A DNA stretch of 64,000 nucleotides from an uncultured cyanobacterium. GTDB lineage: Bacteria > Cyanobacteriota > Cyanobacteriia > Cyanobacteriales > CAWCAG01. The notes under the pieces were generated by a model, which saw only the letters and a list, made by a program, of their open reading frames with translations, was not told where the DNA came from and searched no databases. The translations under genes and the position numbers were made by a program. Position 1 is the first letter of the stretch, and each line of letters opens with the position of its first letter. Of this stretch, positions 39,408 to 57,051 are shown piece after piece. The DNA lies in NCBI GenBank assembly GCA_963793425.1, contig CAWCAG010000001.1, forward strand, positions 320,001 to 384,000, in the 5' to 3' direction.

Positions 39408-39529
39408 AAAAGCTTACTCACCAACCCTTATCCCTATTTCTGAAAAATCCATAACTTTGGCTTGTCTTTTCCCACAGCAACAACCCCAATCTCTTGCATA
39501 CTGACCTCTTTCTACAAATCTTGTAAAAC

Positions 39530-40060
39530 TTTTTGTACCTGGTGATTGATTGGTTAATGTTAAGGCGAAACGTCCTTTGGCATCGGCTGTAACTGTGGCG
39601 ATGCTTTTGTTTAAGGGGCCGCGATTGTTTTCTGTTTCTAAAACCTGATAAATGTCAATTTGTGAACCAGGATCGGCTGTACCATCAAGATTTACTTTGC
39701 CCTCTAGAAGCAAAAATTCTTGACTTAACCATTGGGGAGTGTTAATCGCCCGGTTTCCTGTATCTAAACTACGGTTGCGAGAATCTCTTTGAGGGTTTGG
39801 CCCATCTCCCCTTTGATAATTTTGGCGGTTGGAACTATTCCGGGTAGTTAAGTTGATGCTGAGGCCTTCTAAAGCAGCAAAGTAATTATTTTGAATGAGG
39901 TTGCGGTTACTTTGGGGATAGGCAGCAACAACAACCCCAGGCCCAAGTTGACTGACAATACTATTATTAGTAACTTTGTGGTCATTGCCCATGAGGTAAA
40001 TAGCAGCACGTCTAAGGCGACGACCATTATATTTAATTTTGTTATCGCGAATGGTTACAG
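39530..40060 (-). pseudogene. Internal fragment of a parallel beta-helix protein (last gene of the DUF11 cluster)
   Basis: Open frame SVTIRDNKIKYNGRRLRRAAIYLMGNDHKVTNN...GTADPGSQIDIY...TADAKGRF with no signal peptide; runs into unrelated sequence after PGTK. Confidence 0.7.
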
Positions 40061-40151: not shown

Positions 40152-43100
40152 CTACCTCCCCACAGATTCTCCTTGCTGTTGTGGTGCAATGCTAGTTTGC
40201 CCAAAGCCGCCGAATAAATCATTAAGTTTGACAGTGAAAGTCACATAAGGGCCTCCGGCTGAACGGGAACCTGTGAAATCGCGATCGCTGACTTCCCCTA
40301 ATGAGTAACCCCCAGCGAGACGGAGGTTGGGGGTGAGGTAGTAACCGAGTTCTGCGGAAAAGGCGGTTTCTGTGTAACCAGCAGAGGGTTGAGTAATCCA
40401 TCTTGCTTCTCCTACGAGATCGAAGTTGTAGCCAAGGCGATAGGTTGCTCTGAGTTGTGCTAAGGAGACGGTGCTAGCGGCTACAAAGTCATTGGCTAAG
40501 TAGGTGGTGCTGGTGCGGAAGGCATACTTGCCGTAGAACTCCCAGCGCCAACTGGGGGCGTAAATAGCTTCGGCAGAGAAGAGATGTTCCTCCGAACCAG
40601 TGCCGCCACCAAAGAGGATGGTGTCAGGGATGGTGGCGGGGTTGCGACGATATTCGTATTTTAATAAAGCATTCCAAGTATCGTTATGGGGATCGCGGTA
40701 AGCTAAACCCAATTTTAGGTCGGTTGATGCTCCTAAATCAGCGAGGGTTGTGTTGGCAGAGTGAGCTTGACGAAAGTTGAATAAGGCGGAAATGCTAGGG
40801 CTGATTTTGCCTAATGCCGAAGCAGAAATAACGGTGTTGCTGCCTTGGGAGGAGGTGCGATGTTCAAATAAGGCGCTGGCTTTGAAACGAGGATCGTCGG
40901 TATATTCTAAACCAACACTGTAGCTATCTCCGTCGGTTACTCCTAATAAAGAACCATTTTCCCCTGTGGCAATGGTTTGATTGATGCCTTCTCCTACTAC
41001 ATTGGAGTTGAAGCTACCGAAAACCCTTTCATAAGTGAGGTTGAGTTTTAACCCAGGGGTGATGTCCCAACGATGTTGTAAACCGATGCCTCCTTGAGCG
41101 GTATAATTGTTGGCACTGCCCAGGACTGTATAACGACCAGTTAGGCGGGTGTTGTCGGTGAGATTATAATCTCCTTTAACCCCTAAGCTAGTGATAGATT
41201 GTCCGGCAAACTCTCCACTAGTGTAAAAGTTTTGCCCTAAAGTAACATTCACCCCCGGCACAACTCCCCAATCTAATTCAAAAGCGGTGCGATCGCCGCG
41301 AGAAGCGTTACTATTTCCTAAAATGGTAAGTTCATTGAGAGCTTTGAAGGTAAGATTATTAGTGAGGGGAACGGTGAGGCGCGATCGCAGTTGATGGGAT
41401 TCACCATTAAAATCAGGGTTGATTCTGTCTTCCCGGTTGCGATAAATCCAATCTAAATCAACGGTCGATGTACCCAGCTTTTGTTGAATACCTAAAGAGG
41501 CGGTGGTGAGGGAGTTATCAACAATGCTGTTAGACTCAAAACTATTGAATCCTCCTTCTAAATTAAAACCTTCCAAGACATCGCCAATGGGAGTAAGGGT
41601 TTGTCTGCGGATGCCTTGATTTTCTGTGTGGTCGTATTTGGCCCGCACCCTGGTACTTTCAGAAAGACGGGCTTCAACTTCTGCCCCGTAGCGAGTTTGC
41701 CCAGGAACAAAACTTACTGTCGCATTGTTAGCAAAGCCGCTATCGGTGGAACTATAATAGGCACGTCCTCGGAAACTTTCTCCTAGCTTACTTTCCAGTT
41801 GGAAGCGATAAGCTGAACCAGAAACAGAACCCAACTCCGGGGAAGTATTGTTGGAATGGGCATATTCACCAATAAAGCGAGAACCTTCTCCCAAGGAAAC
41901 TAGGAGATCCGTTCCATAGAGTTCAAAGTCGCGATCGCCTTGATCTTCTTTGAAATAAGTAGCCCCCAACCAGCTTTCGCTATTTAATCCTCTAGCAAAG
42001 TTGTAACGCAATCTGCCGCCATAAATATTGGTGTTGCTAGCATCTCCTTCATATTGATAGGTGGCAACAATCCGCCGGACTAAAACGTTTCCCTCTTCAT
42101 CAATATCAGTACGGAGTATGGGTTCGCGGAAGTTTACCGTCCCTCTATCATAATCAATTTCATAATCAGCCCCTAAAATTAAGCGTTCCCGTTGCAGAAC
42201 AATTCCGGGACGTTCTAATTCTTCCAATTCTAAATAAATATCTTCACTACCAGGGACAACTAGGCGTTGGGAAAGGAAGTAAATACCGCTTGTACCGTCA
42301 GGATTAAGGGTATCTCGTTGAAAACCTTCGACATTGTTGGCATAGAAGCCGCTAATTTGCAGATTGCCTAAATTAAAGTTGCCACTGAAGCCGTGGAATT
42401 GACGATTCAGGGCAGTGAAAAGTTGGGAATTAGTGGCAAACTCCTCTGTGTTATAGTCTCCCCACATAAAGTAGTCGGGGCTAGCATTGGGAATACCGGG
42501 GGAACGTTCTAAGCGTAGGTACAAACTATCTGTAGAGGGAGTTAGCACTTCGGAAGTGGAACTATCGCCATAAATTGAGTATTGATTTTCTGAGGTTTGG
42601 TACTCCCGAAAGATACGGTTGCGGCAATCGCAATCAAGATTTAAAGGACGTTGATTGTTATATGCCCCAGTGTATAACCATTCCCCAATTGTTCCTGTAG
42701 CAAAAACAGCCGTACTAAAATCCAATTCTGTGGAGTTGTCACCATCAGCAGGTAAAAAGTCTTTAAAGCTACCATGAAAATCTGTACCGCGAGATCCCCA
42801 CCGCAGGTTAATCACCCCAGAGATTAAACTAGGACGCAAGGATGTTTCTAATTGCAGTTGGGTATAAGCTTCTAATTCATTAGTTTGTGCTTTAATAGTA
42901 ACGGTTTGCGCCTTGGTGACGGAACGTAAATTAGTGGTAAAACGTCCTTCTAATACCTCCAACTGAAAGCCAGGTTGATCTGGTTTATAATCTGCTTCAA
43001 TAAACTCTCCGGCAGTGGAAGTTAAGGTAACAATACCATTCCAATTGGAGAGGTTGCCATTTTCATCTAATAATTGTCCCTGAACCGTAGCAGTGGAACG

Positions 43101-43745
43101 ACCGTTAGCTTGAATAGCAGTTTCTCTAGTATCAACAATAAGTTGGGTGGGTTGCCCCTTAACTTGTACTTCCACAGAAGCGGTTTCCGAGTTGGCAATG
43201 CTAGCAGTGATAGTGTTGTTGCCAGCCGTAAGGGGAACACCATACCAAGTTTGAGTAATAAGATTATTAATATTATCTGTTTCTGTACGTCCAATTAAGG
43301 AAGAATCTACAGCATTGCCATTGACTTTAAGTTCTACTTCTGTTCCTACTCTGTAGCGAAGAATGACTGTGGCAGCAGGGTTATCAAGGATACTGCCAAC
43401 GGTAGGAGAAATTATGGTTAGGGGAGATTGTTCAGTATTGAGAACAGTTTCTACATTTTCTGTTGTCTCTTCTGCCAAAGGAATAGTTGTTTCGTTTCCC
43501 TGCATCTCTTCTGTAGAAGAAACAGCTTCTACATTTCCTGTTGTCTCTTCTGTAAAAGGAATAGTTGTTTCATTTCCGGTTATCTCTTCTGTAACAACAA
43601 AAGTTCCTGTTCCCTGTTTCCCGTTTCCTGTTTCCTCTTGAACAAAAACATCCTGAGAAGCTTGGGCGATCGCAGGAAAGAAAACCAAATTCGCACCACC
43701 TGCGAGCGCGCCAATTATTTTTACTTTTTGTTTTCTTAATTTCAT
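40152..43745 (-). CDS. Large outer-membrane beta-barrel protein with N-terminal Ig-like domains (DUF11-cluster barrel)
   Basis: Signal peptide; Ig-like segment ANGRSTATVQGQLLD; YSIYGDSS, DYEIDYDRG; long alternating beta-strand C-terminal half ending GPYVTFTVKL. Confidence 0.8.
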   Translation of the reverse strand: MKLRKQKVKIIGALAGGANLVFFPAIAQASQDVFVQEETGNGKQGTGTFVVTEEITGNETTIPFTEETTGNVEAVSSTEEMQGNETTIPLAEETTENVETVLNTEQSPLTIISPTVGSILDNPAATVILRYRVGTEVELKVNGNAVDSSLIGRTETDNINNLITQTWYGVPLTAGNNTITASIANSETASVEVQVKGQPTQLIVDTRETAIQANGRSTATVQGQLLDENGNLSNWNGIVTLTSTAGEFIEADYKPDQPGFQLEVLEGRFTTNLRSVTKAQTVTIKAQTNELEAYTQLQLETSLRPSLISGVINLRWGSRGTDFHGSFKDFLPADGDNSTELDFSTAVFATGTIGEWLYTGAYNNQRPLNLDCDCRNRIFREYQTSENQYSIYGDSSTSEVLTPSTDSLYLRLERSPGIPNASPDYFMWGDYNTEEFATNSQLFTALNRQFHGFSGNFNLGNLQISGFYANNVEGFQRDTLNPDGTSGIYFLSQRLVVPGSEDIYLELEELERPGIVLQRERLILGADYEIDYDRGTVNFREPILRTDIDEEGNVLVRRIVATYQYEGDASNTNIYGGRLRYNFARGLNSESWLGATYFKEDQGDRDFELYGTDLLVSLGEGSRFIGEYAHSNNTSPELGSVSGSAYRFQLESKLGESFRGRAYYSSTDSGFANNATVSFVPGQTRYGAEVEARLSESTRVRAKYDHTENQGIRRQTLTPIGDVLEGFNLEGGFNSFESNSIVDNSLTTASLGIQQKLGTSTVDLDWIYRNREDRINPDFNGESHQLRSRLTVPLTNNLTFKALNELTILGNSNASRGDRTAFELDWGVVPGVNVTLGQNFYTSGEFAGQSITSLGVKGDYNLTDNTRLTGRYTVLGSANNYTAQGGIGLQHRWDITPGLKLNLTYERVFGSFNSNVVGEGINQTIATGENGSLLGVTDGDSYSVGLEYTDDPRFKASALFEHRTSSQGSNTVISASALGKISPSISALFNFRQAHSANTTLADLGASTDLKLGLAYRDPHNDTWNALLKYEYRRNPATIPDTILFGGGTGSEEHLFSAEAIYAPSWRWEFYGKYAFRTSTTYLANDFVAASTVSLAQLRATYRLGYNFDLVGEARWITQPSAGYTETAFSAELGYYLTPNLRLAGGYSLGEVSDRDFTGSRSAGGPYVTFTVKLNDLFGGFGQTSIAPQQQGESVGR
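43437..43592 (-). repeat. Two 78-bp intragenic repeats encoding a Thr/Glu-rich linker
   Basis: TEEITGNETTIPFTEETTGNVEAVSS / TEEMQGNETTIPLAEETTENVETVLN. Confidence 0.85.
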
Positions 43746-43871
43746 AATCTAAAGTCCATTGGGAGACGGGGAGGGGGAAACGGGAAAGTAATAAGTAATA
43801 AGTAATAAGTTGGGAATTTACTATTTTTTACTCTCTTGCACGATTAGCAACTAGCAACTAGCAACTAGCCA

Positions 43872-45371
43872 TTAGTTAATTTCTTCTTGAAAAGTAGGTG
43901 TCACTGCAAAGTTCATCCTTGCCATGCCGCCGGGGGCGAGACGTACTAGCCTTGATTGGCTGTTGCGTTCGCTGAATTTGATATTTGGGGCGATGGTATA
44001 ACCAGGAAGACTAGTAAAATCTAGAGTTCCGGCATGATAACCAGCGTGTACCGAAGCAACGGAAAACAAACCATCGGCATCTGTTGTAATGCGGTTGCCG
44101 TCTTCCAACATAATTACCGCATTGGGAACTCCTGGTTCATTGTTTTGCTGTTCCCCATCAAAGTTTTTATCTACAAAAACTCGACCAATCAAAGTACCAC
44201 AGTCAGCGAGGATGCCGGGGTCAACCCGTAAGCGATGGTTGGTTGGGCCATCCTTAACCCGGAAGTCATTGTCACTACGTTGGGCATTAACAACCGCAGA
44301 ATTAATCCCGGAACCTCTCAAAGAATCGGGAGTTAACTGGGCGGCGTAAACAATATTTAGTACTTCTCCTGGAGGAATTGCTGCGCCTAGTTGCATTGTC
44401 ACCGAACTACTTTCTCCGGTGGTAGTAACCTCAACAGGTTGTCCCTGCAACTCTCCCTGCACAGAGTTCGGCAAAAACTTAAACCCAAGGGGCAAACGGT
44501 CATTAATAATTGCTCTATTTAAAGGTACATCTGACTTATTCCTGATACTAATGCGGTAAAGTATCGTATCTCCGGGTTCAGCCGTAGCGCGATCGCCAGT
44601 TTTAACAATATCAATTTGGTCAGCTTGGCACATTACTGTGTCAAACTGCAAAGCAAACAAAGTTAGTCCTTGTGCTTCTGCATTGAATACTTCCACCATT
44701 TGATCAGTAATTTGCGTTCCCCCTGATACAGAGATGGGTTGCCCATCCAAGGATGTAGCCCGGTAACGGACAATACTATTGTTACTACTGCCAACACTGC
44801 TAAGGATTTCAATTTTGATTCTGCGCTGGGTATAAATAGAATCAGTAGGAGGATTAATAACCAAAATATAAGTTTGACCAGGGTTTGTCTGCCCTTTAGC
44901 CGGATCAAAGAGGAAGTTGTATTGCCCTTGATTAATATTGTCAAGGGGAAAAGGATTGATATTTGTACTGTTAGGATTCCTTCCCCCAGGTACACCATTA
45001 TTTGGAGTGTCAGGAAACTCTGTCTGGCTTAAATTCACCAACCTACCTAATTCCGAACCTGTAGTATCTCCAGGGTTTGGTTCATAAAGTGCAACGGTAA
45101 AGCCACCATAATTATCAAGCACATTGCCGCCACAACCGAGAATGCGACCAAGAGGATCAACTAAAGACTCTGGCTTAGTACCTAAAGTTGTAGAAAAGCC
45201 TTGAAACTTAGTATCTGTGCTAGGGTCTTGGTATTCCACTTGGGCTTGGTTATTAATAGCTGCACGAATAGTCTCAGCAGAGGTTTGGGCCAACACAGAC
45301 ATTTGAGTTGAGATAACAGTCCCGATTGCTAATGCGGCAGTGATAGGTTTTGAGAAAGTAGAGATGTTCAC
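43872..45371 (-). CDS. Secreted DUF11 + SdrD-B-like domain protein
   Basis: IVKTGDRATAEPGDTILY...INDRLPLGF...GINSA; GRVFVDKNFDGEQQNNEPGVPN...TDADGLFS. Confidence 0.85.
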   Translation of the reverse strand: MNISTFSKPITAALAIGTVISTQMSVLAQTSAETIRAAINNQAQVEYQDPSTDTKFQGFSTTLGTKPESLVDPLGRILGCGGNVLDNYGGFTVALYEPNPGDTTGSELGRLVNLSQTEFPDTPNNGVPGGRNPNSTNINPFPLDNINQGQYNFLFDPAKGQTNPGQTYILVINPPTDSIYTQRRIKIEILSSVGSSNNSIVRYRATSLDGQPISVSGGTQITDQMVEVFNAEAQGLTLFALQFDTVMCQADQIDIVKTGDRATAEPGDTILYRISIRNKSDVPLNRAIINDRLPLGFKFLPNSVQGELQGQPVEVTTTGESSSVTMQLGAAIPPGEVLNIVYAAQLTPDSLRGSGINSAVVNAQRSDNDFRVKDGPTNHRLRVDPGILADCGTLIGRVFVDKNFDGEQQNNEPGVPNAVIMLEDGNRITTDADGLFSVASVHAGYHAGTLDFTSLPGYTIAPNIKFSERNSQSRLVRLAPGGMARMNFAVTPTFQEEIN

Positions 45372-45453
45372 AGTTGGCGTTGGGGAGATGGGGGGCTGGA
45401 GAGATGGGGGGCTGGGGAGCTAGAACATTTGGCGACTAGCCACTAGCCACTAA

Positions 45454-45759
45454 CTAATGATCAGCCTTAACATCCCCGGAGTTTTCCCCACTAACCACAT
45501 AACGTAAAGTGTCTCCTGGTGCAACCTTAACCTTTCCCTCTAAAGCTTTCCAGCTAACTTGCTTGTCAGCATCCACAACTTTTTGTTCAGCTTCTAAAGT
45601 GAGTTTAACTTCCGGACGACGAATTGCTTCAACAAGCGCTTCTCCCATTTCCTGGAGTTGTGCCAACACTGGCTGCCCACTAATTAAGGGAACTGCACTA
45701 ACTAAAGCAAGCATTCCGAATCCAACTAACAAACGTTTTTTACTTAATAAAGCTTTCAC
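45454..45759 (-). pseudogene. Truncated small DUF11 protein (paralogue of 52392-52949)
   Basis: RPEVKLTLEAEQK...PGDTLRYVVSGENSGD aligns with the paralogue, then stops at an STRR array. Confidence 0.8.
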
Positions 45760-45820
45760 GTATATAACTCCTAATGCAAACTTTCAAATGAACTATTAGC
45801 AACTAGCAACTAGCAATTAA

Positions 45821-48331
45821 CTAATTCACCCGACGACGGAAAATCAAGAACCCTTCTTTTTGTGGTTCCAAAAGTCCTGTCACCTTGTCTATGTATTTAG
45901 TGACATCGTTATTAACTGTGACACCGGATTGATCAATAGTTGAGGTGCTTGCTGGGCTGCCACTGAAATAGCTGATGTTGCCGCCGCGGGAGTCACTGGC
46001 TGAACCAACAATATTGCTAGTGTCGATTTCGCTATTATTGTCGTTGTCTAATGCCCAATTATTCGGAGCAGTTACACCATCTTCTGTAATCACAATGTTG
46101 TCGGCTTTCAGTGATACATTGCCACTACCTGCGGGAGGTTCAGAAATGTTTTTGTAGATAACTTTGTATTCAATAATGTTGCCCGAAGAAGGAGTTCTCA
46201 GTACATCCGCAACAGTACTATTAGGATCATTCCCATTAGCATCAGTAGGAGTGGAATTAAAATCACCTTGCCCAGCCTTAACTAGTTCCCCATCTCCTTG
46301 TAAGATACGGGAGAGTTTGGTTAACTTCAAATAACCAGTGTAAACCCGATCAATGGTTGTATTTTTATTCAGGACAGCACCTCCATTACTAATGGTTGCA
46401 GTTAAGGGTACGGGATAACCAGGCTCATTATCACCAGAGGCTGCATCCGTTGAAAGGGAGGTATTGTTAGGTAAGTCGATTTCTACACCGTAGTTAAATT
46501 GCTGGTTAGGAGCAACATTAGGAACAACAATGGGAGTACCTGTTGTCGTGAATGTATTATTAACTTGATCGTAAGTATAAGTTGCTGTAGCGCCAAGAGG
46601 ACTAATAATTGTTACTTTAGTACCGTTAGGTAAGTCGTTGGGGTTAGCTAGAGGTGAGGGTTCTATGGTTATATTTCCTTTGGTTTGCCCATTGTTAATA
46701 ATAGTATTCGTGAAGTTGACCGGCCCCGGATCATAGGTGCTTCCCGGAGTCGCTTTAGCAGAAGGTAAAATCGCTGATTTGTTGGTAAAATCATCATTGT
46801 TACTGTTAGGGCCGGTTGCACCAGGGGCATTGTCAGGGCCATTAAGCAAGTCGTAGACTTTGGCAATCCCCAAAGGTAGTATATTAGCTTCACCAGCAGT
46901 TCCTGTACCAGTGTTGTTGTTACCGGGGTCAGTACCTACAGTCCCTAACTCATCAGGTTGCCCGTCGCCGTTACCATCAGGTAAATAACCATCGGTAGCA
47001 GGGTCAAAAGCACCAGCAGTTTCATTGTAGTTGCTAGGAGTTTGGTCACCAGATTCATCAACTACAGGGACAGTTCCCGCCGAATCAGATGCACCAAAGA
47101 CTTGAGCAATATTAGCAATAGTAGCTGAATTGCCAGGAACATTGCTGGTAAGAACTTGGACACGGAAGGTTTGTACCGTTGTACCGGGACCAACAGAAGC
47201 TACAGAGTTGTTGTTGATGAAACCAACTCGTTTAACTGCACTAAAATTTCCCCCTGGCACTGTTGTTACCCACCGTGCCTTGGTTGCATCGTCGTAGGGA
47301 GTTGTTGCCGGATCATCAAGGGTATAAACAGCTGTCCAACCAGTAGGTGCAGTGGTAAGACCAGTTAGGACAGTACCCGCAGGAATCGCATCGGAAACGA
47401 GGATATGCTTCTCAGGCGTGCCATCAATATTGATATTACTCAAAGGTAGCAACGGAGCAGGAATAAAACCCCCAGTTGTCGGGTCGTTTTGTTCTACCCT
47501 AAACTTCAAATCATAGGTGATTCTGTCATCGGTGATAATAGAAGAGTCTCCTGGCAGATATTCTGACCTAGTTTTCTCGATAGTTACCAAAGGCTGGTTT
47601 TTAGCTGCATCTCCTACCTTAATTCCCTGAGTATCGCTAGCTTCCCGCACCCCGTTAGCAGGAGCGCCAGGTGTTTCACCAATCGTACCGTCAGCAGCAT
47701 CAACAGTGTAGACATCACCACCATTGGTAATAAAGTCTTGGTTTTGACTATTACCAGGAGTGTTACCTAACTGAACGTTGATGGTATCTCCTGATTGAGG
47801 ACTAGAATCAACGGTAATTGGTACTCGAACCAGAATAGAACCTCTTGGTGCTAGAGGAGTAGTATCTAAAGACCCGGCCGTAATCGCCTGCCAACCATTG
47901 CCATCATTGTAATTAACTTCTAAGCTACCACTAATAATACCTGGCCCTGTGAGGTTTGCAGTGTTAGGAATGCGGAACTTGGTTGTATCGTTACCAACGT
48001 TTGTAACTGTATATGTGTAGTAAAGTTCGTCATTTTTTGCGATGGGAGTGGTAGAGCCATCTTGCTTAGCAATACCTGATGCCTTCACAGTAATACCAGC
48101 AATCTCTGCAACTTCCACAGTCACTTTGTTGGACTTAGAAGTTAACTTCGCAGAAGGATCATTGGGGTCATTATAGGTTGCTGTTGCTGTGTTATCAATT
48201 TTCGTGCCAGCCGCCGTGTCTGGATCTGCAAGGGCTGGGAGAATGAGTTGCAAGTTACCACTGAGAATTAGTAGAGTACTTATAATGGGCAAGTAAGACT
48301 TGCGCGATTTAGTAGTGATGTTTTTAGCCAT
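45821..48331 (-). CDS. Large secreted multi-Ig/DUF11-like protein (putative fibre subunit A)
   Basis: Signal peptide; AGTKIDNTATATY; YTVTNVGND; SDAIPAGT; NDDFTNK; GYLKLTK...IEYKVIYKN...FRRRVN. Confidence 0.8.
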   Translation of the reverse strand: MAKNITTKSRKSYLPIISTLLILSGNLQLILPALADPDTAAGTKIDNTATATYNDPNDPSAKLTSKSNKVTVEVAEIAGITVKASGIAKQDGSTTPIAKNDELYYTYTVTNVGNDTTKFRIPNTANLTGPGIISGSLEVNYNDGNGWQAITAGSLDTTPLAPRGSILVRVPITVDSSPQSGDTINVQLGNTPGNSQNQDFITNGGDVYTVDAADGTIGETPGAPANGVREASDTQGIKVGDAAKNQPLVTIEKTRSEYLPGDSSIITDDRITYDLKFRVEQNDPTTGGFIPAPLLPLSNINIDGTPEKHILVSDAIPAGTVLTGLTTAPTGWTAVYTLDDPATTPYDDATKARWVTTVPGGNFSAVKRVGFINNNSVASVGPGTTVQTFRVQVLTSNVPGNSATIANIAQVFGASDSAGTVPVVDESGDQTPSNYNETAGAFDPATDGYLPDGNGDGQPDELGTVGTDPGNNNTGTGTAGEANILPLGIAKVYDLLNGPDNAPGATGPNSNNDDFTNKSAILPSAKATPGSTYDPGPVNFTNTIINNGQTKGNITIEPSPLANPNDLPNGTKVTIISPLGATATYTYDQVNNTFTTTGTPIVVPNVAPNQQFNYGVEIDLPNNTSLSTDAASGDNEPGYPVPLTATISNGGAVLNKNTTIDRVYTGYLKLTKLSRILQGDGELVKAGQGDFNSTPTDANGNDPNSTVADVLRTPSSGNIIEYKVIYKNISEPPAGSGNVSLKADNIVITEDGVTAPNNWALDNDNNSEIDTSNIVGSASDSRGGNISYFSGSPASTSTIDQSGVTVNNDVTKYIDKVTGLLEPQKEGFLIFRRRVN

Positions 48332-48892
48332 ATTTGCCTTTCATTAAGAAAGATAAAATAGAAGTTTGTCGGTTTGATATTTTTCTTTGCTGAACTTATA
48401 TTCATTATTTGTTCTCAGTGTTTATGATGATGTGTGTTTAAACGTATACTTTGAATTTAGTTGGATACCTCACCCTTTTGCTCTGTAGTTTTGTAAGGTA
48501 AATGCCTTCACAGGAAAGTCATACCTGCAATCCTCAGAAAAAATCATTTCAGGAAAGAAAAATTTTGAGGCAACAAAAAATAGACTTTAAACAAACACAA
48601 AACAAACATTTTGGCTAACTTAGGGTTCATAAATAAGTACTTTTTGGTACGCTCACCTGCCTAAAGGAGTATTGAGGCTTGCATTTTTGGGGATCTTTAT
48701 CTCCCCATAGTTGAAAGTTTCTGAGATTATTCTTTCTTAAGGCTCAGGGTTTGTTGATATTTATTATGTTATCTTGTCAAGCTAGACCCCAATAATTTTT
48801 TTGATTTTAATAACAATTTCCCTTAACAAGAAACACAATTTAGTATTTTTGGGTCTTTCAATAATACGAGAATAATTTAGGTCAATATCCCC

Positions 48893-51800
48893 ATGAAACT
48901 ATACAGGCGGCATCTTTATTGGTTGTTGTTCCTGCTTTCCTTCACTGGAAATCTTTATAGCCAAAAAGCTGTCCAAGCTCAAGTAATAATACCTGCTAAT
49001 GACGGTACTGGTACGATTGTTACCCCAGAAGGGAATCGCCTTGATATTTCTGGCGGTACTCTAACTCCAGATGGAGCAAATCTTTTTCATAGTTGGCAAC
49101 AATTTGGCTTAAATGCAGGGCAAGTTGCTAACTTTATTTCTAACCCAGAAATTAGCAATATTCTAGGGCGAGTTGTGGGGGGAAATCCTTCGGTAATTGA
49201 TGGTTTGATTCAAATTAGTGGCGGCAACTCCAACTTATTTTTACTTAACCCCGCAGGAATTGTTTTTCTTAATAATGCTCAATTAAATGTTCCTGGAGAT
49301 TTTACAGCTACCACTGCTACAGGAATTGGTTTCGGTAATAATAATTGGTTTGATGCTTTTGGTGGCAATAACTACCAAAACTTGGTTGGTGATCCGACTC
49401 AATTTGCCTTTGATTTATCCCAACCAGGGGTAATAGTTAATGCAGGTAATTTAGCTGTAGCAACAGGAGAAAACTTAAGCTTATTAAGTGGCAGTATTTA
49501 TAACACCGGAAACCTCAGCGCCCCAGCCGGGAAAGTAACCTTAATGAGTGTCCCCGGAAGCAGTGTGGTGAGAATTAGCCAACCAGGAAACTTGTTAAGC
49601 TTAGAAGTCAAACCTCCTGGTAATACAGGATTTCGTGCTTTAGATTTACCTGCTTTGTTAACTGGATCTCTGCAAAATATTGATACGGGTTTAGAAATTA
49701 ATCAAGGAAAAGTACAACTGGTTTATTCTGGAGAAACCATTCCTACCCAACCAGGTACAACCATAGTTTCTGGCAACATAGATGTTTCCTCCCCTACTAA
49801 TCAAGGGGGCAATGTAGATATTTTGGGTTCCCGCGTCGGTATAGTGGGAGCAAATATTGATGCAGTGGGTAATCAGGGCGGCACAGTGAGGATTGGGGGA
49901 GATTACCAAGGCAAGGGCGGCATACCCAATGCTGATTTTATTTATATTGGTAGCAACTCCCTAATCAACGCCTCTGGAAGCAAAGGAGATGGGGGTAGGG
50001 TAATTGTTTGGGCAGATAAGACAACTAATTTCCAAGGTGACATTGTTGCTAAGGGAGGAATGAATGGAGGTGATGGGGGTTTTGTGGAAGTTTCTGGTAA
50101 GCAAAACCTTTGGTTTCGGGGGAAAGTAGATTTAAGCGCCCCCCAAGGAAAATTGGGAACCCTCTTATTAGATCCTGAAGATATCCTCATCATTAATAGT
50201 GGTGGTAATAATAGTGCTTTAGCCGATAATCAAATTCTTTTTAGCGATCGCCCCAATGAAACCTTCACTATTTCTGCTGCCACCCTTGAGAGTTTAAACG
50301 GTAACATTTTATTAGAAGCTACCGAAAATATTATCCTCGACTCCGCCCTCTCTTTAAAATTCGTTCCTGGGGGAGATATAACCTTTACAGCAGACTCTGA
50401 TGGCAATGGTAGTGGTGCTTTCACCATGGGTAGTAACCAATCCCTAACTACATCAGGAAGGGATCTAACTATCTCTGCTGCAACCATAGAAGCCGGGAAT
50501 ATTAATACATTGTCCGATTCTGGTAGTGGTGGTGCGGTGCTATTAAGCGCTAACCAAGGGAGATTAAAAGTAGGAGATATTAACACCGCCTCAACTGCCC
50601 CCTTAACTGCCAGTACCAAAGATGGCGGAGAAGTTAACTTAGAAGCAACTGCGGGGCAAATACAAGCCGGGAATATTGATACTTCTTCTACTTTTGGTAG
50701 AGGGGGGGCAGTGCAACTATCTACATCCAACATTGCTACCCTCAAAACCGTCAACACTCAGGGTAGGGAAGCCGGGGGCAACTTCACTAGTAATAGTCTC
50801 TTGCTACGGGTAACAGACACTTTTCTTAACAACAACAACATCACAGCTAGTATTTCCACTACTGCTTCTTCAGGTACAGGAGGATTGATCGATATCAATC
50901 ACCGTAGCGGCGAATATAACATTCCCTTCATTGTCGGCAAAGCGAATTTCAATGGTACTACCGGAGCGGTTACTAGCGGCGACTTTACCATTTTGCCCGA
51001 TCCCCAAAACTTCCCCTCTTCCTTTAACTCAGGTTCTGTTAACCTAACCACTCCTGAACCTGTGACTGCTTGCCCCCCAGAATGCGAAGAAAGCGAAGAA
51101 GAACAAAAAGTCGAATCCCTTGAACAAGTACCTGCTGTAACCATGGTAGGGCAAATAGAAAGCACTTATACCGAAGAGTTTACTGATTTTCTTGGTACTA
51201 CCGCCCCCCAACCAGTCAGCGTCGAAGAAACCATAGATACCTTGCGCGAAAGCCAAGAACTTACAGGCAAAAAATCAGTCGTTATCTATGCAGAGTTTGT
51301 TGATGATAACTTAGAAATTGCCTTAGTAAGTCCTAACAGACAACCCGTTAGGTACAAAATAGAAGGGGCAGAAAAAGAAAAAGTCATAGAAACCGTCCTC
51401 CAATTCAATCGCGCCCTTGCCAATGTACGCCGCCCTCAAGTTTATCTTCCTGCTTCCCAACAACTTTATGAGTGGATTATCGCCCCAGTTGCTCAAGAAT
51501 TAGCAGCGGAGGATGTGGATCACCTCAGTTTTGTTATGGATGCTGGCTTGCGTTCCTTGCCTCTAGCGGCTTTGCATAGCGGCAAAGGCTTCTTGATTGA
51601 GGAATACAGCGTTGGCTTATTACCAAGTATTTCTTTAACTAACTTTAACTATTTAGATAGCCAAGAACAACAAGTCCTCGCCATGGGGGCAGAACATTTC
51701 ACTCGGCAAATTTCTTTACCTGCCGTCCCTTTGGAGTTACAATCAATTGTTGGTAGCTTATGGTCTGGTAAGTCCTTTATCAATGAAGCTTTCACCTTAG

Positions 51801-52330
51801 AAAACCTCCAACAAGCTCGTGCTTCCCAATCCTTTGGTATCATTCACTTAGCTACTCATAGTAAGTTTCGCCCCGGCAAACCGAGTAACTCTTACATTCA
51901 GCTTTGGGATACTAAGCTAGGATTAGACGACTTACCTAAGCTAAGTTTAAACAGTCCCCCAGTAGATTTATTAGTACTTTCTGCTTGTGAAACTGCTGTA
52001 GGAAGTACCGAAGCAGAGTTAGGCTTTGCGGGCTTGACAGTGCAAGCTGGGGTTAACTCTGCCCTTGGTAGTCTTTGGGCTGTTAGCGATGAAGCAACTT
52101 TAGGACTCATGGGAGGTTTTTACGAACAACTAAGAGAATCTCCTAAAGCAGAAGCACTACGCCAAGCACAGTTAGGAATGCTGCAAGGGAAAGTTAAGTT
52201 GGAAGATGGCTATGTGGTTACAGGTTCGAGGAAGTTACCTTTACCTGCAAAGTTAAGAAAGTTAGGCAATCAAGACTTTTCTCATCCCTACTATTGGAGT
52301 GCTTTTACCATGATTGGTGATCCATGGTGA
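48893..52330 (+). CDS. Filamentous-haemagglutinin-N + CHAT (caspase-like) protein
   Basis: [34 protein letters not shown] with IHLATH and [19 protein letters not shown]. Confidence 0.92.
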
Positions 52331-52391
52331 TGTTCATTGAACATTGAACATTTTTCCTAGGAGGATAATTCTTGATTGCCAGCTATTTATC

Positions 52392-52949
52392 CTACTTAAT
52401 TGAAACTTGGTAGGAAGCTTGTACCTGCTCCTGTGCTACTATAGCCTGTTCAAAGCTCCAACGAATGTGAGTATAGGACTCGGCAGGAGCTGGTTGCTCG
52501 ATGATTGTACCATTGTTATCTACTTGGATAGTTGGTTCTGTACTGAAAGTTGCACCGTTATCGATACTGTAGGTGATAGTAGCAACATTGCTACTATCTG
52601 CTGAATCTAAAACAAAGATAGTTTGTGTAGGAATAGGCTGGGTAATTACAAAGTCGTTTGCTGTAGCATCACCAGTATTTTCACCACTAACCGTGTAACG
52701 AAGAACATCCCCTGGTACAACCGTAGCTTCTCCTGCCAGTTCTTGCCAGTCAATTTGTTCATTTCCAGAACCATCAACTGTGATCATACGCTTAGCTGCA
52801 TCCAAGTCTAACTTAACTTCAGGGCGATTCAGAAGTTGGGCGATTTTGGTTCCTGCCTCGCGGATACTAGCCCGCACTGGTGAACTAGCTAAAACTGGAA
52901 CTGTAATAACAAGAGCGATTGCACTGAGACTAAGAACGAGACGTTTCAT
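52392..52949 (-). CDS. Small secreted DUF11-like protein
   Basis: Signal peptide; VVPGDVLRYTVSGENTG, ITQPIP, YSIDNG, YTHIRW, YQVSIK. Confidence 0.85.
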   Translation of the reverse strand: MKRLVLSLSAIALVITVPVLASSPVRASIREAGTKIAQLLNRPEVKLDLDAAKRMITVDGSGNEQIDWQELAGEATVVPGDVLRYTVSGENTGDATANDFVITQPIPTQTIFVLDSADSSNVATITYSIDNGATFSTEPTIQVDNNGTIIEQPAPAESYTHIRWSFEQAIVAQEQVQASYQVSIK

Positions 52950-52993
52950 GATAAACCTCTATTATCTACAAATTAGTACTTTGAAAGAAAGTC

Positions 52994-53016
52994 GGCGAGA
53001 AAAATTTTTACTCGCC
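52994..53016 (-). terminator. Intergenic stem-loop after the 820-aa gene
   Basis: GGCGAG-11 nt-CTCGCC about 25 nt after the stop codon; terminator or mRNA stabiliser. Confidence 0.5.
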
Positions 53017-53041
53017 AATTGTGTCTGCTGTAACCAAGATT

Positions 53042-55498
53042 TTAATTAACCTTGCGTTGGAAGCTAAACTCACCCGATACACCAGGAGCAACATTGCTGA
53101 TTGTGTCTATATATTTAGTAATATCTACACCCACTGCATCTAAGACGCTACCACCACCAAGGTCAAAGTACGCAACAACACCGCCGTTATCATCGCTAGC
53201 TTGCCCAACAACATGGCTGGTATCAGTTTCGCCATTACTGTCGTTGTCTAAGGCCCAGTTGTTATCGATAGCTACATCAGCACCATCTTCAGTAATTATT
53301 ACTGTGCTGGCATTTAAGCCGATGTTTCCTACACCACCACCAGGGGTAGAGATATTGCTGTAGGTGACAGTATATTCAATGATATTACCCGGTGCAGGGG
53401 GGTTATCAGGATCGCTAACTATTGGGCCATCTCCTTGTAGAACTTGGAAAGTTTTTTCTAGTTTTAAATAACCAGTGTAAAGCCGATCAATCGTGGTGTT
53501 CTCTGCTTCAAAAGTTCCGTCACCATCGGTATCTAGTTTAGCAACAACTTGTACAGGGAAACCAAACTCTGTATCTCCAGTGTAATCCTCAATTGTGTCG
53601 GTAGAAAGAGGTGTGTTGGTAGGTAAATCAATTTCTACATTGTAGGCAACAGGAACATTTGGAAGTACTCCTTTTCCTGGACCACCGACAAGAGGCAGCG
53701 AGTTGTCAAAGACAATCGCTACGCCATTAGTGAGAGTAAAGGTTCCTGTGGCTTGAACATACTGGTAAGTGGCAGATTTAATTGGATTAGTAGGGTCAAG
53801 AATATCTGCTGCGGTTATAGTAACCACAGTTTGATCTGGCAGATCAAGGGGGTTAACTGGGGCAACAGGTTCTAGGGTAACATCAGCAGACTGGCCACTC
53901 TGATTGACAAAAGTGTTCACAAACGTTACGGGATCGGGGTCAATGGTAGAACCTGGTTTGGTGTATTTGATAATTGGTGTAGATTTGTTGGTAAAGTCGT
54001 CGTTACTGTCCGTTGGTCCAATGGCATCCACAACATCTTTGGGACCATTTAAAATATCTCCCACTGCAGGTAAGGCAATCTCGATAAAGTTTGCTTCACC
54101 ACCAGGACCATCACCAGTGTTGTCGTTGTTGGTATCAATACCAATACTAGCAGTTAAAGCTGCTAAATCCGTAGCATCAAGTAAGCCGGTATCAGTGATG
54201 GGGTCAAAAACATCTACAGTACCATTAGCAGGGTTGTAGTTATTCGGATTTTGGTCACCAGATTCATCATAAACAAGAATGTCAGGAACTCCGTCTGTAG
54301 CACCAAAAGCTTGGACGATGTTGGCTACATTTAAAGGTGAAGTTGCAGTGGCAATAACTCCTAACTGGAGAGAAAAACCGTTAACAGTTTGCCCTGGAGT
54401 AACAGTAGCTACTGTACTGTTGATGAAACCAACACGAGTTACAGGACCAGTCAAATCTCCTATATCTGTTCTCCAGTTGGCATCTACAGCAGCAGTAGCG
54501 ATGAAACTATCTGTGTAAACAGTTATCCAGCCGCTAGGGGCAACCGGCGTGCCTTGTAATTCTGTTCCTGCGGGAATAGCATCCGAGATGAGGATATGAG
54601 CCTTAACGACACCATCAACATTAATATCTATACCAGCCAGAGGTGCAGGGTTAAGCCCTATACCTGTTGGATCACTAGATTCAACCTGCAAACTAAGATC
54701 ATAGGTAAGAACATCGTCGATAATATTGAGAGGATCGCCCTTATCGTGGTTAGTTTGGGTTTTAAGGACTTTTGCTAGGGCTGTTGGTGAGGCTTCTACT
54801 GTTGCTTCTTGAAGAACACTGGTTTCGCTTTCACCATTAGCTGGGGCCGGAGTACTATCATCAATTGTTTGTAAGTCGCTACCATCACCAGCATCAACTA
54901 ATGACTGACTTGTACCATCGTTATTGGCTGCATTACCCAGTCGAACACCAATGGTTTCTCCGGAATTAGCGTTGCTGTCAACACTTACTGTCACCCTGAC
55001 TTTAATTGAGCCATCGGCAGCAATGGCAGTAGTCGTAGTTAGACCGTTCGCAGGAACTGACGTTTCAAACGTACCATCTCCATCTAAATCTACATCTACA
55101 GAGGTAATAGTACCAGGGCCTGTGATATTGATACTGTCCTGGTCGGGGATAAATAATTGCGTTGGATCATTACCAACGTTAGTAATGGTGTAGTCGTAAA
55201 AGATTTGATCATTCCGAGCAATTTTGCCACCATTATCATCAATTACACCAGCATTCGTTGCTGTAATACCAGAAACTTCTGCTACGGTGACGGTAATAGT
55301 ATCAGAAGTTGCATTGATGATATTAAGAGGATCGGTTAAATCAATATAAGTTGCAGTTGCAGTGTTTTTAATCTCTTGGCCAGCTTGAGTGTCAGCTAGA
55401 ACAGGAGAAATCAACCGAAAGTTACCGCTAACTATCAAAGCAGTAGTAAGGAAAATCCAATATAATCTGCTTGTCTTTCTGAAGGTTTGACGTGCCAT
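53042..55498 (-). CDS. Large secreted multi-Ig/DUF11-like protein (putative fibre subunit B, paralogue of 45821-48331)
   Basis: AGQEIKNTATATY, ITNVGNDP, SDAIPAGT, DESGDQNP, NDDFTNK, GYLKLEK...IEYTVTYSN...FQRKVN. Confidence 0.8.
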   Translation of the reverse strand: MARQTFRKTSRLYWIFLTTALIVSGNFRLISPVLADTQAGQEIKNTATATYIDLTDPLNIINATSDTITVTVAEVSGITATNAGVIDDNGGKIARNDQIFYDYTITNVGNDPTQLFIPDQDSINITGPGTITSVDVDLDGDGTFETSVPANGLTTTTAIAADGSIKVRVTVSVDSNANSGETIGVRLGNAANNDGTSQSLVDAGDGSDLQTIDDSTPAPANGESETSVLQEATVEASPTALAKVLKTQTNHDKGDPLNIIDDVLTYDLSLQVESSDPTGIGLNPAPLAGIDINVDGVVKAHILISDAIPAGTELQGTPVAPSGWITVYTDSFIATAAVDANWRTDIGDLTGPVTRVGFINSTVATVTPGQTVNGFSLQLGVIATATSPLNVANIVQAFGATDGVPDILVYDESGDQNPNNYNPANGTVDVFDPITDTGLLDATDLAALTASIGIDTNNDNTGDGPGGEANFIEIALPAVGDILNGPKDVVDAIGPTDSNDDFTNKSTPIIKYTKPGSTIDPDPVTFVNTFVNQSGQSADVTLEPVAPVNPLDLPDQTVVTITAADILDPTNPIKSATYQYVQATGTFTLTNGVAIVFDNSLPLVGGPGKGVLPNVPVAYNVEIDLPTNTPLSTDTIEDYTGDTEFGFPVQVVAKLDTDGDGTFEAENTTIDRLYTGYLKLEKTFQVLQGDGPIVSDPDNPPAPGNIIEYTVTYSNISTPGGGVGNIGLNASTVIITEDGADVAIDNNWALDNDSNGETDTSHVVGQASDDNGGVVAYFDLGGGSVLDAVGVDITKYIDTISNVAPGVSGEFSFQRKVN

Positions 55499-55568
55499 AT
55501 TCATTCACTAGGAATAAGTTTGAATTAAATGCTGATGTATTGTCTTTAGGGAAGATAGGATGAGACTT

Positions 55569-55953: not shown

Positions 55954-57051
55954 TTACCCATGGGTGATAGGTAAAGAAAAGCGGAAGGTACTGCCTTCAC
56001 CTAACTCACTTTCTACCTCAATTTTGCCCCCTTGCAACTCTACTAAATGACGAGCGATCGCTAAACCAATTCCTGTACCTCCTGAATGGCGCGATCGCGA
56101 ACGATCTGCTCTCCAGAAGCGTTCAAAAACATGACTTAGGTTTTCTGGGGCAATTCCTGGCCCTGTATCAATTACAGCTATCCAAACATAACTATTGTCT
56201 GCCCAAGCACGAACGGTAATAGAGCCTTTTTCGGTGTAAAGTAAGGCATTACCAAGTAAGTTAACTAAAACCTGTTCTGTGCGGTCAATATCTGCTACAA
56301 TTGGCGGTAAATTTTCAGGACAATCTAACTGTAAAGTAGGGCCTTCTTCCCAGAGTTGATCGGCAAATCTTGCTACTAATGATTTCAACAAAGGTAACAG
56401 AGGCAAAGGTTTGAGGTCGATTGGTAAATAGCCTGCTTCCGCTTTAGATAGTTCCTGCAAGTCATTAACTAACCTCTCTAAGCGTTTTGTTTCTCGTACC
56501 AAACGCAGATATACTTCCGGGGATGATTCAATGCTGCCATCAGCTAATTCTTCTAAATAACCCCGTACCACCGTGAGAGGAGTACGCAATTCGTGGGTCA
56601 TATCCCCAATTAACTCCCGCCTCTGCTGTTCTACTCCTTCTAAACTATCAGCCATACGATTGAAGCTTTTACCCAATTGATTTAACTCCGGAATTTCTGT
56701 ATCTGGCATTCTTTCTTGTAAGTTACCTGCGGCTAGTTTCTGGGTTACTTCTTCCATTTGTTTTAGGGGTTGCATGATACGCCGAGAAATTAAGTAACTG
56801 AGTCCCCCTGCTGCCGTTGCACCCACAATAGCCGGCCAAATGATACTGCGATTCCAAGCAGCTTGAAAACCCCGAATTAAGAAGGTGCGGGAAGAACGAA
56901 CAGTAACAAAGCCTCTTCTTTCTAACTGTTCGAGTTGCAAGACAAATGTTTTGGGAGAAGCGAATTTAGAAACTAAGGTAAGACTACCAAAGCCGACTAC
57001 TATTACTAGTAGGTGCGAGAAGAATAAGCGTTTACCTAAGCCTAATGCCAT
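55954..57051 (-). CDS. HAMP-domain sensor histidine kinase
   Basis: Two TM segments, HAMP, DMTHELRTPL, NLLGNA, DTGPG, GGTGIGL. Confidence 0.93.
   Translation of the reverse strand: MALGLGKRLFFSHLLVIVVGFGSLTLVSKFASPKTFVLQLEQLERRGFVTVRSSRTFLIRGFQAAWNRSIIWPAIVGATAAGGLSYLISRRIMQPLKQMEEVTQKLAAGNLQERMPDTEIPELNQLGKSFNRMADSLEGVEQQRRELIGDMTHELRTPLTVVRGYLEELADGSIESSPEVYLRLVRETKRLERLVNDLQELSKAEAGYLPIDLKPLPLLPLLKSLVARFADQLWEEGPTLQLDCPENLPPIVADIDRTEQVLVNLLGNALLYTEKGSITVRAWADNSYVWIAVIDTGPGIAPENLSHVFERFWRADRSRSRHSGGTGIGLAIARHLVELQGGKIEVESELGEGSTFRFSLPITHG

Follow-up and report, generated by a model that had tools for sequence, protein, structure and literature searches.

A stretch of 64,000 nucleotides from the genome of an uncultured cyanobacterium (hereafter the window; contig CAWCAG010000001.1 of assembly GCA_963793425.1, positions 320,001 to 384,000) probably carries the genes of a surface-fibre system whose basis is a split isopeptide domain of the CnaA type (DUF11, also called CLIPPER). 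Subunits of this fibre would join head to tail, the N-terminal hairpin of one completing the unfinished C-terminal domain of another, and would be locked to each other covalently. The computations behind this reading establish a split domain, its conservation, the operon around it, natural fusions of its two halves and a modelled preference for insertion between chains. A fibre of this kind had been proposed for positions 40152-55504 in an earlier interpretation made from the letters alone (the sequence-only reading). Computation lent support to each of its elements and contradicted none; the sequence features that it named were checked on the translations and are all present, on the minus strand, where it had placed them. 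Positions below follow the numbering of the window and refer to the minus strand unless the plus strand is named, whereas residue numbers are those of each protein.

The two major subunits are P0003 (836 amino acids; 45821-48331) and its paralogue P0004 (820 amino acids; 53042-55504), which are 46-48% identical and were defined from their translations and Pfam DUF7925 matches. Past its signal peptide, P0003 begins with AGTKIDNTATATYNDP...SNKVTVEVA and P0004 with AGQEIKNTATATYIDL...SDTITVTVA, and both conform to the pattern AG..I.NTATATY...S..VTV.VA. The donor hairpin defined by this pattern covers residues 41-75 of P0003 (AGTKIDNTATATY...SNKVTVEVA; 48107-48211, Asn47 codon 48191-48193) and lies at 55280-55384 in P0004 (Asn47 codon 55364-55366). 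It is followed in P0003 by a domain D2 (residues ~75-238), an internal CnaA-like DUF7925 domain, a domain D4 (~492-667) and an unfinished C-terminal domain, with domain ranges taken from VIA-align. The C-termini read YTGYLKLTK...GNIIEY...ITEDG...FLIFRRRVN in P0003 and YTGYLKLEK...GNIIEY...ITEDG...FSFQRKVN in P0004. This acceptor domain occupies residues 664-836 of P0003 (45824-46342; Lys672 codon 46316-46318, Glu750 codon 46082-46084), where it terminates at the strand preceding the missing hairpin, and positions 53045-53479 in P0004 (Lys684 codon 53453-53455, Glu739 codon 53288-53290).

Both halves are strongly conserved. P0003 has 1217 homologues at E<=0.001, and in an alignment of 80 of them (34-75% identity) the hairpin residues N47 and S67 are invariant (80/80 each), while I45 and Y53 are each found in 76 of the 80. 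At the other end of the protein K672 is likewise invariant (80/80), and position 750 is always acidic (78 Glu and 2 Asp). The invariance of the Lys and the Asn is what the sequence-only reading had depended on; the catalytic acid that it expected is present throughout, and is now identified as Glu750, the equivalent of the canonical Asp of DUF11. Across the split forms that could be scored, Lys and Asn are both kept in 172/172.

By profile comparison the terminal pieces appear to be of the DUF11 type, as had been suggested, although the comparison to a CnaB-like fold was not borne out: the fold is CnaA-like. DUF11 is described as CnaA-like in a survey of isopeptide domains, with one such domain solved (PMC12617251). 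Because Pfam misses the window's terminal pieces when they are presented alone, their link to DUF11 runs through relatives. A search from a deep-branching relative (L099) recovered a wide family of proteins of 811-1691 amino acids; among the matches listed, the hairpin motif falls within the first 110 residues in 116 of 120, and nearly all end right after a '...F.V.I(Q/N)' strand. The hairpin profile of the major subunits aligns with the wide-family hairpins by hhalign (99.0%, E 3e-18), and the C-terminal profile with the wide-family C-terminal domain (98.3%, E 2e-14, 124 columns, same end residue), so that the two Lys coincide and Glu750 falls on the DUF11 Asp. In the major subunit of one relative, L100, the last 150 residues match DUF11 itself at 31.7 bits (the cut-off being 24.6); the aligned part takes in profile positions 14-84 of 114 and stops one residue short of the C-terminus. 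A cargo-type neighbour protein likewise matches DUF11 at residues 794-890 of 892, over profile positions 2-83, and complete DUF11 domains in the same systems extend to positions 104-107. The claim that the C-terminal domain halts where the hairpin strands should begin is borne out in these relatives, whose DUF11 ends at position 83-84 of 114. The canonical DUF11 arrangement, with Lys in the first strand, the acid in the 'D.lP' strand and Asn in the penultimate strand, corresponds at the level of sequence to K672, E750 and N47. The window's C-terminal domain aligns weakly with the DUF11 of P0002 (hhalign 48%). Set against the closing part of P0002's complete DUF11 or of DUF7925, the hairpin scores less than 1%, a test for which it is too short.

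Natural fusions place the two halves side by side. In five proteins (P0144, P0160, P0182, P0192 and P0231), the C-terminal domain runs directly into the hairpin through the junction ...F.F.R.VN-x6-9-I.N.A.A.YED.... In four of the five, D2 follows the hairpin, the order that a head-to-tail chain would have; in P0231, a different repeat domain stands there instead. It is therefore the C-terminal domain, rather than D2, that the hairpin accompanies, and on these sequences hairpin and C-terminal domain form one domain. An assignment of the hairpin to D2 was considered and rejected, since P0231 keeps the hairpin without D2 and the hairpin contacts the C-terminal domain in the modelled complex described below. 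Two giant fused open reading frames (ORFs), of 2711 amino acids (G023, L094) and 2451 amino acids (G230, L095), carry the module permuted and contiguous; no small, anchor or barrel gene was found within 10 kb of either. They may be ancestral or derived single-chain versions of the same stalk.

A monomer prediction cannot separate placement of the hairpin within its own chain from placement between chains. In a competition fold (ESMFold2), residues 36-567 of P0158, the whole mature chain of a short-form homologue about 50% identical to P0003, were offered with their own hairpin and C-terminal domain to a second copy comprising residues 36-240 (hairpin and D2). The interaction prediction score from aligned errors (ipSAE) was 0.84, 0.85 and 0.85 in three runs, compared with 0.00, 0.00 and 0.19 in the controls; at least 99% of contacts were common to the runs, and the predicted local distance difference test (pLDDT) of the partner was at least 90. 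Residues 36-73 of the partner contacted the first chain at 414-506 and 552-567, including K422 and E485, and at 266-276, with strand 481-484 paired with 47-51 and 420-422 with 63-66. Of 157 solved complexes 116 attain the ipSAE mark, as do 2 of 215 mismatched pairs, a calibration that is rough here, where an alignment of our own was used; a pass supports binding rather than showing it. Because the family has no sequence relative in the Protein Data Bank (PDB), where a search with the major-subunit alignment returned none that was credible, it is unlikely that the pass reflects a solved relative memorised by the model. Insertion between chains is thus preferred in the model even where a chain has a hairpin of its own, as the sequence-only reading predicted for the N-terminal segment and the neighbour's C-terminal domain (ipSAE 0.85 against a best control of 0.19).

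The same result bears on a different reading of the split, in which each subunit would place its own hairpin in its own C-terminal domain and become a closed, possibly cyclised monomer, with the orphan halves described below pairing with one another. The AlphaFold2 monomer of P0003 (mean pLDDT 88.1, predicted template modelling score (pTM) 0.70) gives the hairpin a pLDDT of 88-96, as expected if it were docked on its own chain; the interdomain linkers are short, a four-domain ring is conceivable, and the one donor-only and one acceptor-only protein of each operon could pair 1:1. Against such closure, the C-terminal domain of the hairpin-bearing chain took up the hairpin of the partner in 3/3 runs. 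Short forms do not contain DUF7925, their D2 and D4 are joined by only ~10 residues, and a self-closed ring of three domains would be strained by so short a link. In addition, fused relatives carry the same domains linearly inside long adhesins, and operons of other phyla add, besides the small protein, a cargo protein that ends in the unfinished domain, so that acceptors outnumber the single donor-only protein. Self-closure is accordingly judged decidedly unlikely, and insertion between subunits is retained in what follows.

The major subunits also contain one complete isopeptide-type domain. DUF7925 (PF25546) matches P0003 at 195.3 bits (E 1e-57; residues 248-435, 47027-47590) and P0004 at 203.5 bits (E 3e-60), with a cut-off of 26.5, and Pfam found nothing else in either protein. 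This family was built from AlphaFold models predicted to hold an intrachain Lys-Asp-Asn isopeptide, with a Nostoc protein as an example, and the triad predicted for the seed Q8YS00 is K264, D326 and N415 (PMC12617251). P0003 (K253/D314/N407) and P0004 (K248/D308/N395) have the three residues at the corresponding positions, in agreement with the full Lys, Asp and Asn set that the sequence-only reading had noticed in an internal domain. Conservation of this triad (K253 61/71, D314 64/72, N407 65/72) is less strict than that of N47, K672 and E750 in the terminal split domain. Residues 244-488 of the P0003 model align to the CLIPPER domain 9ifr (Z 8.3, root-mean-square deviation 2.7, 122 aligned) and to domains of SpaD, BcpA and RrgB (Z 8.0-9.0) in VIA-align; whole-model Foldseek and VIA-align comparisons gave matches at the level of domains only. 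Residues 436-480 had been considered as a long flexible linker that would allow the chain to fold back, an idea that was ruled out: VIA-align places the strand 481-487 inside DUF7925, and the stretch is a loop.

Further downstream of P0003 lie genes for a putative anchor and a predicted barrel. P0002 (499 amino acids; 43872-45371; defined by translation and Pfam) has a hairpin and only complete domains, which makes it donor-only, and its gene is directly upstream of that of P0001. It consists of an N-terminal INNQAQVEYQDP segment, a prealbumin-like region, a complete DUF11 (residues 253-351, profile positions 2-104 of 114) and an SdrD_B-like domain. The sequence-only reading had described this protein correctly as to its hairpin segment, its complete DUF11 and its position before a barrel; the SdrD_B-like domain is present only as a weak match, with 25.4 bits below the cut-off of 29.7. 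The hairpin (45168-45266; Asn41 codon 45249-45251) aligns with the major-subunit hairpin profile (hhalign 94.5%, E 8e-8). Within the P0002 family N41 and Y47 are invariant (81/81 each), and the triad of its own DUF11 is nearly so (K257 81/81, D291 80/81, N357 79/81).

P0001 (1197 amino acids; 40152-43745; defined by translation and AlphaFold2) combines a signal peptide, variable acidic repeats and two immunoglobulin-like (Ig-like) domains with a predicted barrel. The AlphaFold2 model of residues 105-1197 is all-beta, with ~37 strands of at least 9 residues (pTM 0.40), and its Ig-like domains reach a pLDDT of 70-85. Foldseek returned generic matches, namely SlpA/SDBC of Deinococcus, LptD and MtrB at TM-scores of 0.12-0.20, with FimD at rank 33. 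At E<=0.01, Pfam gave only weak Invasin_D3 and GH2 Ig-like matches to P0001; NCBIfam gave none, and neither the protein alone nor its alignment had a credible sequence relative in the PDB. Its neighbours in the Atlas are outer-membrane-type clusters. We read P0001 as a putative outer-membrane barrel of very large size, from a family not yet described. The acidic stretch (residues ~36-105; 43430-43640) consists of the near-repeats TEEITGNETTIPF, TEETTGNVEAV, TEEMQGNETTIPL and AEETTENVETV, and is unaligned in most orthologues, whose matches begin near residue 109.

The association of this barrel with the other proteins is documented by gene order and by fusion. In a sample of 19 soil-metagenome loci of at least 9 kb, scanned with alignment A6, 16 have a single ORF of 1815-1884 amino acids that joins an N-terminal hairpin, the anchor DUF11 and SdrD_B and the barrel; in the other three the contigs end before the anchor/barrel gene. 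This fusion argues for a joint function of P0002 and P0001, in line with the earlier assignment of the 499-residue protein as a base adaptor tied to the barrel. Synteny and fusion together suggest that P0001 may conduct or hold the fibre. A reading in which the genes are unrelated, P0001 being a TonB-dependent receptor and the DUF11 proteins generic adhesins exported by some other route, can appeal to names: many of the 1544 homologues of P0001 at E<=0.001 are called 'TonB-dependent receptor' at NCBI (others 'Ig-like domain-containing protein'), and one Atlas cluster is automatically named likewise. Such a reading is scarcely credible given that Plug and TonB_dep_Rec find no match in P0001 at E<=0.01, that the barrel gene accompanies the major-subunit gene in 78/80 loci and that it is fused to the anchor in 16/19. 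In three related genomes (G098, G059 and G035), barrel matches carry in-frame stops (TGA; TAG; TAG plus TAA, respectively); a DUF7925 gene is present in these genomes, but their barrel gene may be defective.

A fourth conserved component, which the sequence-only reading missed while listing the major subunits, the 499-residue protein and the barrel, is the small secreted DUF11-type protein P0126 (185 amino acids; 52392-52949; defined by translation, Pfam and TIGR01451). P0126 has an unfinished domain of the acceptor type and no hairpin of its own. Pfam places DUF11 at residues 73-150 (profile positions 9-91 of 114) with 24.4 bits, just under the cut-off of 24.6, and the protein also matches TIGR01451. 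It aligns with the unfinished acceptor profile by hhalign (97.7%, co-terminal), with Q104 on the catalytic Asp; in its family Lys53 is kept in 80/81 and Gln104, at the catalytic-acid position, in 81/81. The acid is also replaced in distant small proteins, by Gln in the deep-branching relative (LQPVGNIP) and by Thr in the soil clade (VVATLPVP). Because the shape of the socket is kept and the catalytic acid is absent, P0126 is read as a non-reactive receptor, which probably binds hairpins without reacting, as a periplasmic chaperone or a cap. A SpyCatcher with its Glu changed to Gln binds without reacting.

P0127 (101 amino acids; 45454-45759; defined by translation and profile match) is a copy of the small protein at the canonical position of the operon. 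It stops after a PGD..RY..N motif and matches the small-protein profile only at positions 3-100 (E 3e-27), and orthologues have 182-248 amino acids. The truncation lies just 83 bases before the next gene, and the intact paralogue P0126 adjoins P0004. The arrangement of the two small genes looks like a partly reshuffled duplicate system.

The order of transcription on the minus strand is P0004, P0126, P0003, P0127, P0002, P0001 and P0128, and its core recurs widely. A gene-neighbourhood survey, which the sequence-only reading had proposed as a check, covered 80 genome loci retrieved through their major subunit; the major gene is followed by a small gene in 80/80, a P0002-type gene in 80/80 and a barrel gene in 78/80, in constant order and on a constant strand, and the contigs of the two remaining loci end first. 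A short-form major subunit occupies the same operon, and small, major, anchor and barrel genes are all present in the deep-branching relative (L099). In the soil loci, the small gene precedes the major gene in 17/19, and the other two begin inside the major gene. All 12 soil loci with at least 3.3 kb beyond the fused barrel have a further gene there, encoding 892-1432 amino acids with a signal peptide, a DUF6923-like N-terminal region and an unfinished C-terminus (...LRLEK...NDDTPAYT...TVTFVVKIQ), and with the N-terminal hairpin absent. By its sequence, this protein is likely an acceptor-only cargo or adhesin.

Orphan halves of this kind, donor-only and acceptor-only, are the strongest comparative argument, drawn from sequence, for joining between chains. 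With the competition fold, they support the proposal that an N-terminal hairpin completes the next subunit. The genome of the window has major-subunit genes, anchors and barrels in two copies each, and two small genes, of which one is intact and the other truncated. Its second system lies on contig 5 (~1236054-1248199; L096, L156) and includes a barrel paralogue of 1226 amino acids. The anchor there, of 317 amino acids, has DUF11 and SdrD_B, and its N-terminus is hairpin-like by eye only (hhalign 3%). Two DUF6923 proteins of 826 and 804 amino acids follow, hairpin-less and with an unfinished C-terminal domain (hhalign 96.8%, co-terminal), and on these sequence features they are candidate cargo proteins or adhesins for either system.

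The family extends beyond cyanobacteria. Its source names include laboratory organisms (Nostoc and Anabaena strains and Thermus thermophilus), and those of the wide family, among the matches listed, include Sericytochromatia, Thermus, Deinobacterium, Verrucomicrobiae, Candidatus Angelobacter, Deltaproteobacteria, Krumholzibacteriia and Gracilimonas. Among 201 sampled genomes of the phylum, 20 have DUF7925 and 31 match the barrel profile, including all 20. The other 11 barrel-positive genomes have an anchor and a barrel without a major subunit; their shorter operon, shared with contig 5 of the window's own genome, encodes a 317-residue protein, the barrel and a 570-residue beta-helix protein. 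Polymerisation is thus not needed for the core module, and an anchor-barrel pair as core with optional major subunits supports joining between chains, yet keeps alive the idea of a stalk of fixed composition. In such a stalk, covalent plugs and sockets would attach single proteins to the barrel-bound anchor (one major subunit, then a cap or cargo), and no long homopolymer would form. Anchor-barrel-cargo operons without a subunit that is both donor and acceptor, in this and other genomes, would suit it, as would the absence of DUF7925 from 11 of the 31 barrel-positive genomes, and the first major subunit could have its hairpin capped by P0126. A subunit whose donor and acceptor share one specificity can, nevertheless, extend indefinitely; insertion was homotypic in the competition fold, no limit on copy number is seen in the sequences, and two major-subunit paralogues are retained in the genome. 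A fixed stalk is for these reasons considered unlikely, and an extendable chain is preferred.

The proposed fibre would be assembled as follows. P0003 and P0004 would be exported by Sec, each with an N-terminal hairpin (bearing Asn47) that represents the last strands of a DUF11 domain and a C-terminus (bearing Lys672 and Glu750 in P0003) that represents the remainder. Entry of the hairpin of one subunit into the unfinished domain of another would yield a complete domain and, along the chain, a continuous string of Ig-like domains. An autocatalytic isopeptide between Lys672 and Asn47, with the help of Glu750, would then probably lock the subunits together without sortase. P0002, which offers only a plug, would end the chain on the side of the cell and tie it to the barrel P0001, through which the chain probably threads, while P0126 would probably hold hairpins reversibly as a periplasmic chaperone or cap. 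At the distal end, hairpin-less proteins with an unfinished domain are the likely cargo or adhesins; their genes would be those of the second barrel locus in this genome, and those inside the operon in other phyla. By analogy with chaperone-usher pili, growth would be by addition at the base, ended by the anchor hairpin. The covalent bond, the length of the polymer and its direction of growth are inferred, as are the function of P0126 and the route of the chain through the barrel.

Independence from sortase, which the sequence-only reading had asserted, is in keeping with the genome: sortase (PF04203) has no match in this assembly (98.62% complete), and P0003 and P0004 have neither an LPXTG motif nor a hydrophobic tail. 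Usher (PF00577) and PapD-like (PF00345) families also have no match in the assembly, although control genomes did match, and neither P0001 nor P0126 has an usher or PapD-like Pfam match. The lock itself could be dispensed with if strand complementation were non-covalent and Lys, Asn and Glu served only packing or hydrogen bonding. The P0126 family, which keeps Lys53 (80/81) without the acid, illustrates that a conserved Lys need not mean a bond. The three positions are, on the other hand, the isopeptide triad of DUF11/CnaA, more strictly kept than the internal triad, and only the small protein, in two lineages far apart, has another residue for the acid (Gln and Thr). A purely non-covalent assembly is therefore held to be very unlikely.

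Several observations weigh against a covalently locked chain that is secreted through a barrel. The interface in the competition fold lists K422, E485 and hairpin residues 41-73, and these are residue contacts, not a Lys-Asn-Glu geometry; the fold rests on the homologue P0158, on ESMFold2 and on our own alignment, with the rough calibration given above. The confidence of the P0003 monomer (hairpin pLDDT 88-96, pTM 0.70) is compatible with self fold-back in the long form. Lys is replaced by Thr in 2/5 fused forms, and the bond is dispensable for the fold; a loss confined to fused forms, in this small sample, is what would be expected if the bond matters most between separate chains. Pfam found DUF11 in 0/4 of the isolated hairpins and C-terminal domains of the window. 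The barrel model of P0001 is of low confidence (pLDDT 60.4), and its secretion role is putative. To these are added the 11 of 31 barrel-positive genomes with anchor and barrel alone, and the truncation of the operon's own small gene in the window.

Several known systems share parts of this logic. In chaperone-usher pili (PMC11821415), as is predicted here, an incomplete Ig-like fold is completed by the N-terminal segment of a neighbour, the tip is acceptor only, the shaft is both donor and acceptor, the terminator is a donor, and an outer-membrane barrel is dedicated to the assembly. The same division of parts appears to have been reached with unrelated parts. There is no homology between the two; here the donor is a hairpin with an isopeptide Asn instead of a single strand, the completed domain is CnaA/DUF11, and the subunits have ~830 amino acids and 4-5 domains. 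What the candidate chaperone would present is a socket to the donor, instead of a strand to the groove, and the link is probably covalent. Sortase pili (SpaA, SpaD, BcpA, RrgB) likewise consist of strings of CnaA/CnaB-type Ig-like domains with Lys-Asn bonds. Their domain bonds are, in contrast, intrachain, and the bond between subunits is made by sortase at LPXTG, whereas the proteins described here end in RRRVN or QRKVN and the bond between subunits would be the autocatalytic bond of the domain itself.

A similar principle has been proposed for the biofilm-matrix fibres of BsaA of Clostridium perfringens, namely insertion of the N-terminal segment into a sheet of the next monomer and an Asn-Lys isopeptide formed via Glu, without sortase, and has been tested by mutation, oligomers being lost on substitution of each of these residues (PMC11580942). 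Strand insertion followed by an Asn-Lys bond would make both systems cases of 'exchange and lock'. BsaA is TasA-like, single-domain, Gram-positive and SipW-processed, with no outer membrane or barrel, whereas the present proteins are a split DUF11, multi-domain and diderm, come with an anchor, a barrel and a non-reactive receptor, and gave no TasA-like Pfam match. The threads of Sulfolobus acidocaldarius (Saci_0406) are reported to combine donor-strand complementation with proposed covalent links between subunits, in which the Asp24 amine at the N-terminus bonds to Asn57 in the next-but-one subunit (PMC9715654). They differ in the absence of a Lys-Asn-acid triad, in another fold and in their archaeal host, which has no outer membrane. 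SpyTag/SpyCatcher and related pairs resemble the present system in that a short fragment of an isopeptide domain, with one reactive residue, and the large remainder, with the other and the acid, react spontaneously (PMC5487036); those are laboratory constructs and mostly CnaB, whereas the present case would be a natural CnaA split that serves assembly, with a natural non-reactive 'catcher' (P0126). None of these systems is homologous to the one described here, and none combines a split CnaA, multi-domain subunits, a barrel and a non-reactive socket.

Literature searches found no description of this operon or mechanism, and those on DUF7925 or Q8YS00 returned only the isopeptide survey (PMC12617251), whose supplements may list these proteins. 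A 2026 review names, in the portion of its text available, only the chaperone-usher, type IV, sortase and curli routes (PMC13721041). The prevailing view holds that the pili of diderms are non-covalent (chaperone-usher, type IV, type V, curli) and that covalent pili need a sortase and a Gram-positive wall. There is about an even chance that the proteins described here represent an unrecognised class of pilus or surface display across many diderm phyla, based on a split CnaA/DUF11 'tag and catcher' in which a dead socket, with Gln or Thr for the acid, restrains the plugs in the periplasm. Just as evenly balanced is the division of roles envisaged for that class, with cargo as socket, shaft as plug and socket, anchor as plug (sometimes fused to the barrel) and a sortase-free lock. 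Such a self-locking fibre, independent of sortase, would be available to diderm bacteria and, if confirmed, would deserve a pilus class of its own. Also new would be the family of very large outer-membrane barrels, which would have a role like that of an usher or an autotransporter barrel, and the natural non-reactive 'catcher'. Natural CnaA-type pairs of plug and socket with differing specificity could serve as tools for protein ligation. More speculatively, the fibres may bear on adhesion, mat formation or symbiosis in filamentous cyanobacteria.

The surroundings of the system require a few remarks. The span named in the sequence-only reading (40152-55504) does contain the genes of the system, including two that it left unmentioned (52392-52949 and 45454-45759), but it also holds an unrelated gene. 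This gene (48893-52330, plus strand; 1145 amino acids; defined by its Pfam domains) encodes a two-partner secretion (TPS)/haemagglutinin secretion domain at the N-terminus (E 1e-44) and a CHAT protease-like domain at the C-terminus (E 2e-67), and separates the genes of the two major subunits on the opposite strand. It is placed outside the system because a counterpart is found in 0/80 related loci. A scan for promoters and terminators gave fewer sites than in shuffled sequences, and its result was not used. The last gene of the series, P0128 (192 amino acids; 39414-39992; defined by translation and homology to beta-helix/Ig proteins), matches only the C-terminal part of beta-helix/Ig proteins of 494-743 amino acids, which occur downstream of the barrel in 11/80 loci and, as the protein of 570 amino acids, after the second barrel of this genome. 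P0128 is probably a remnant of such a protein, and its membership in the system is uncertain. Directly upstream of P0004, on the same strand, Pfam identifies a HAMP/HisKA/HATPase sensor kinase (55954-57051) and a class II tRNA synthetase of the Asp/Asn/Lys type (57166-58557).

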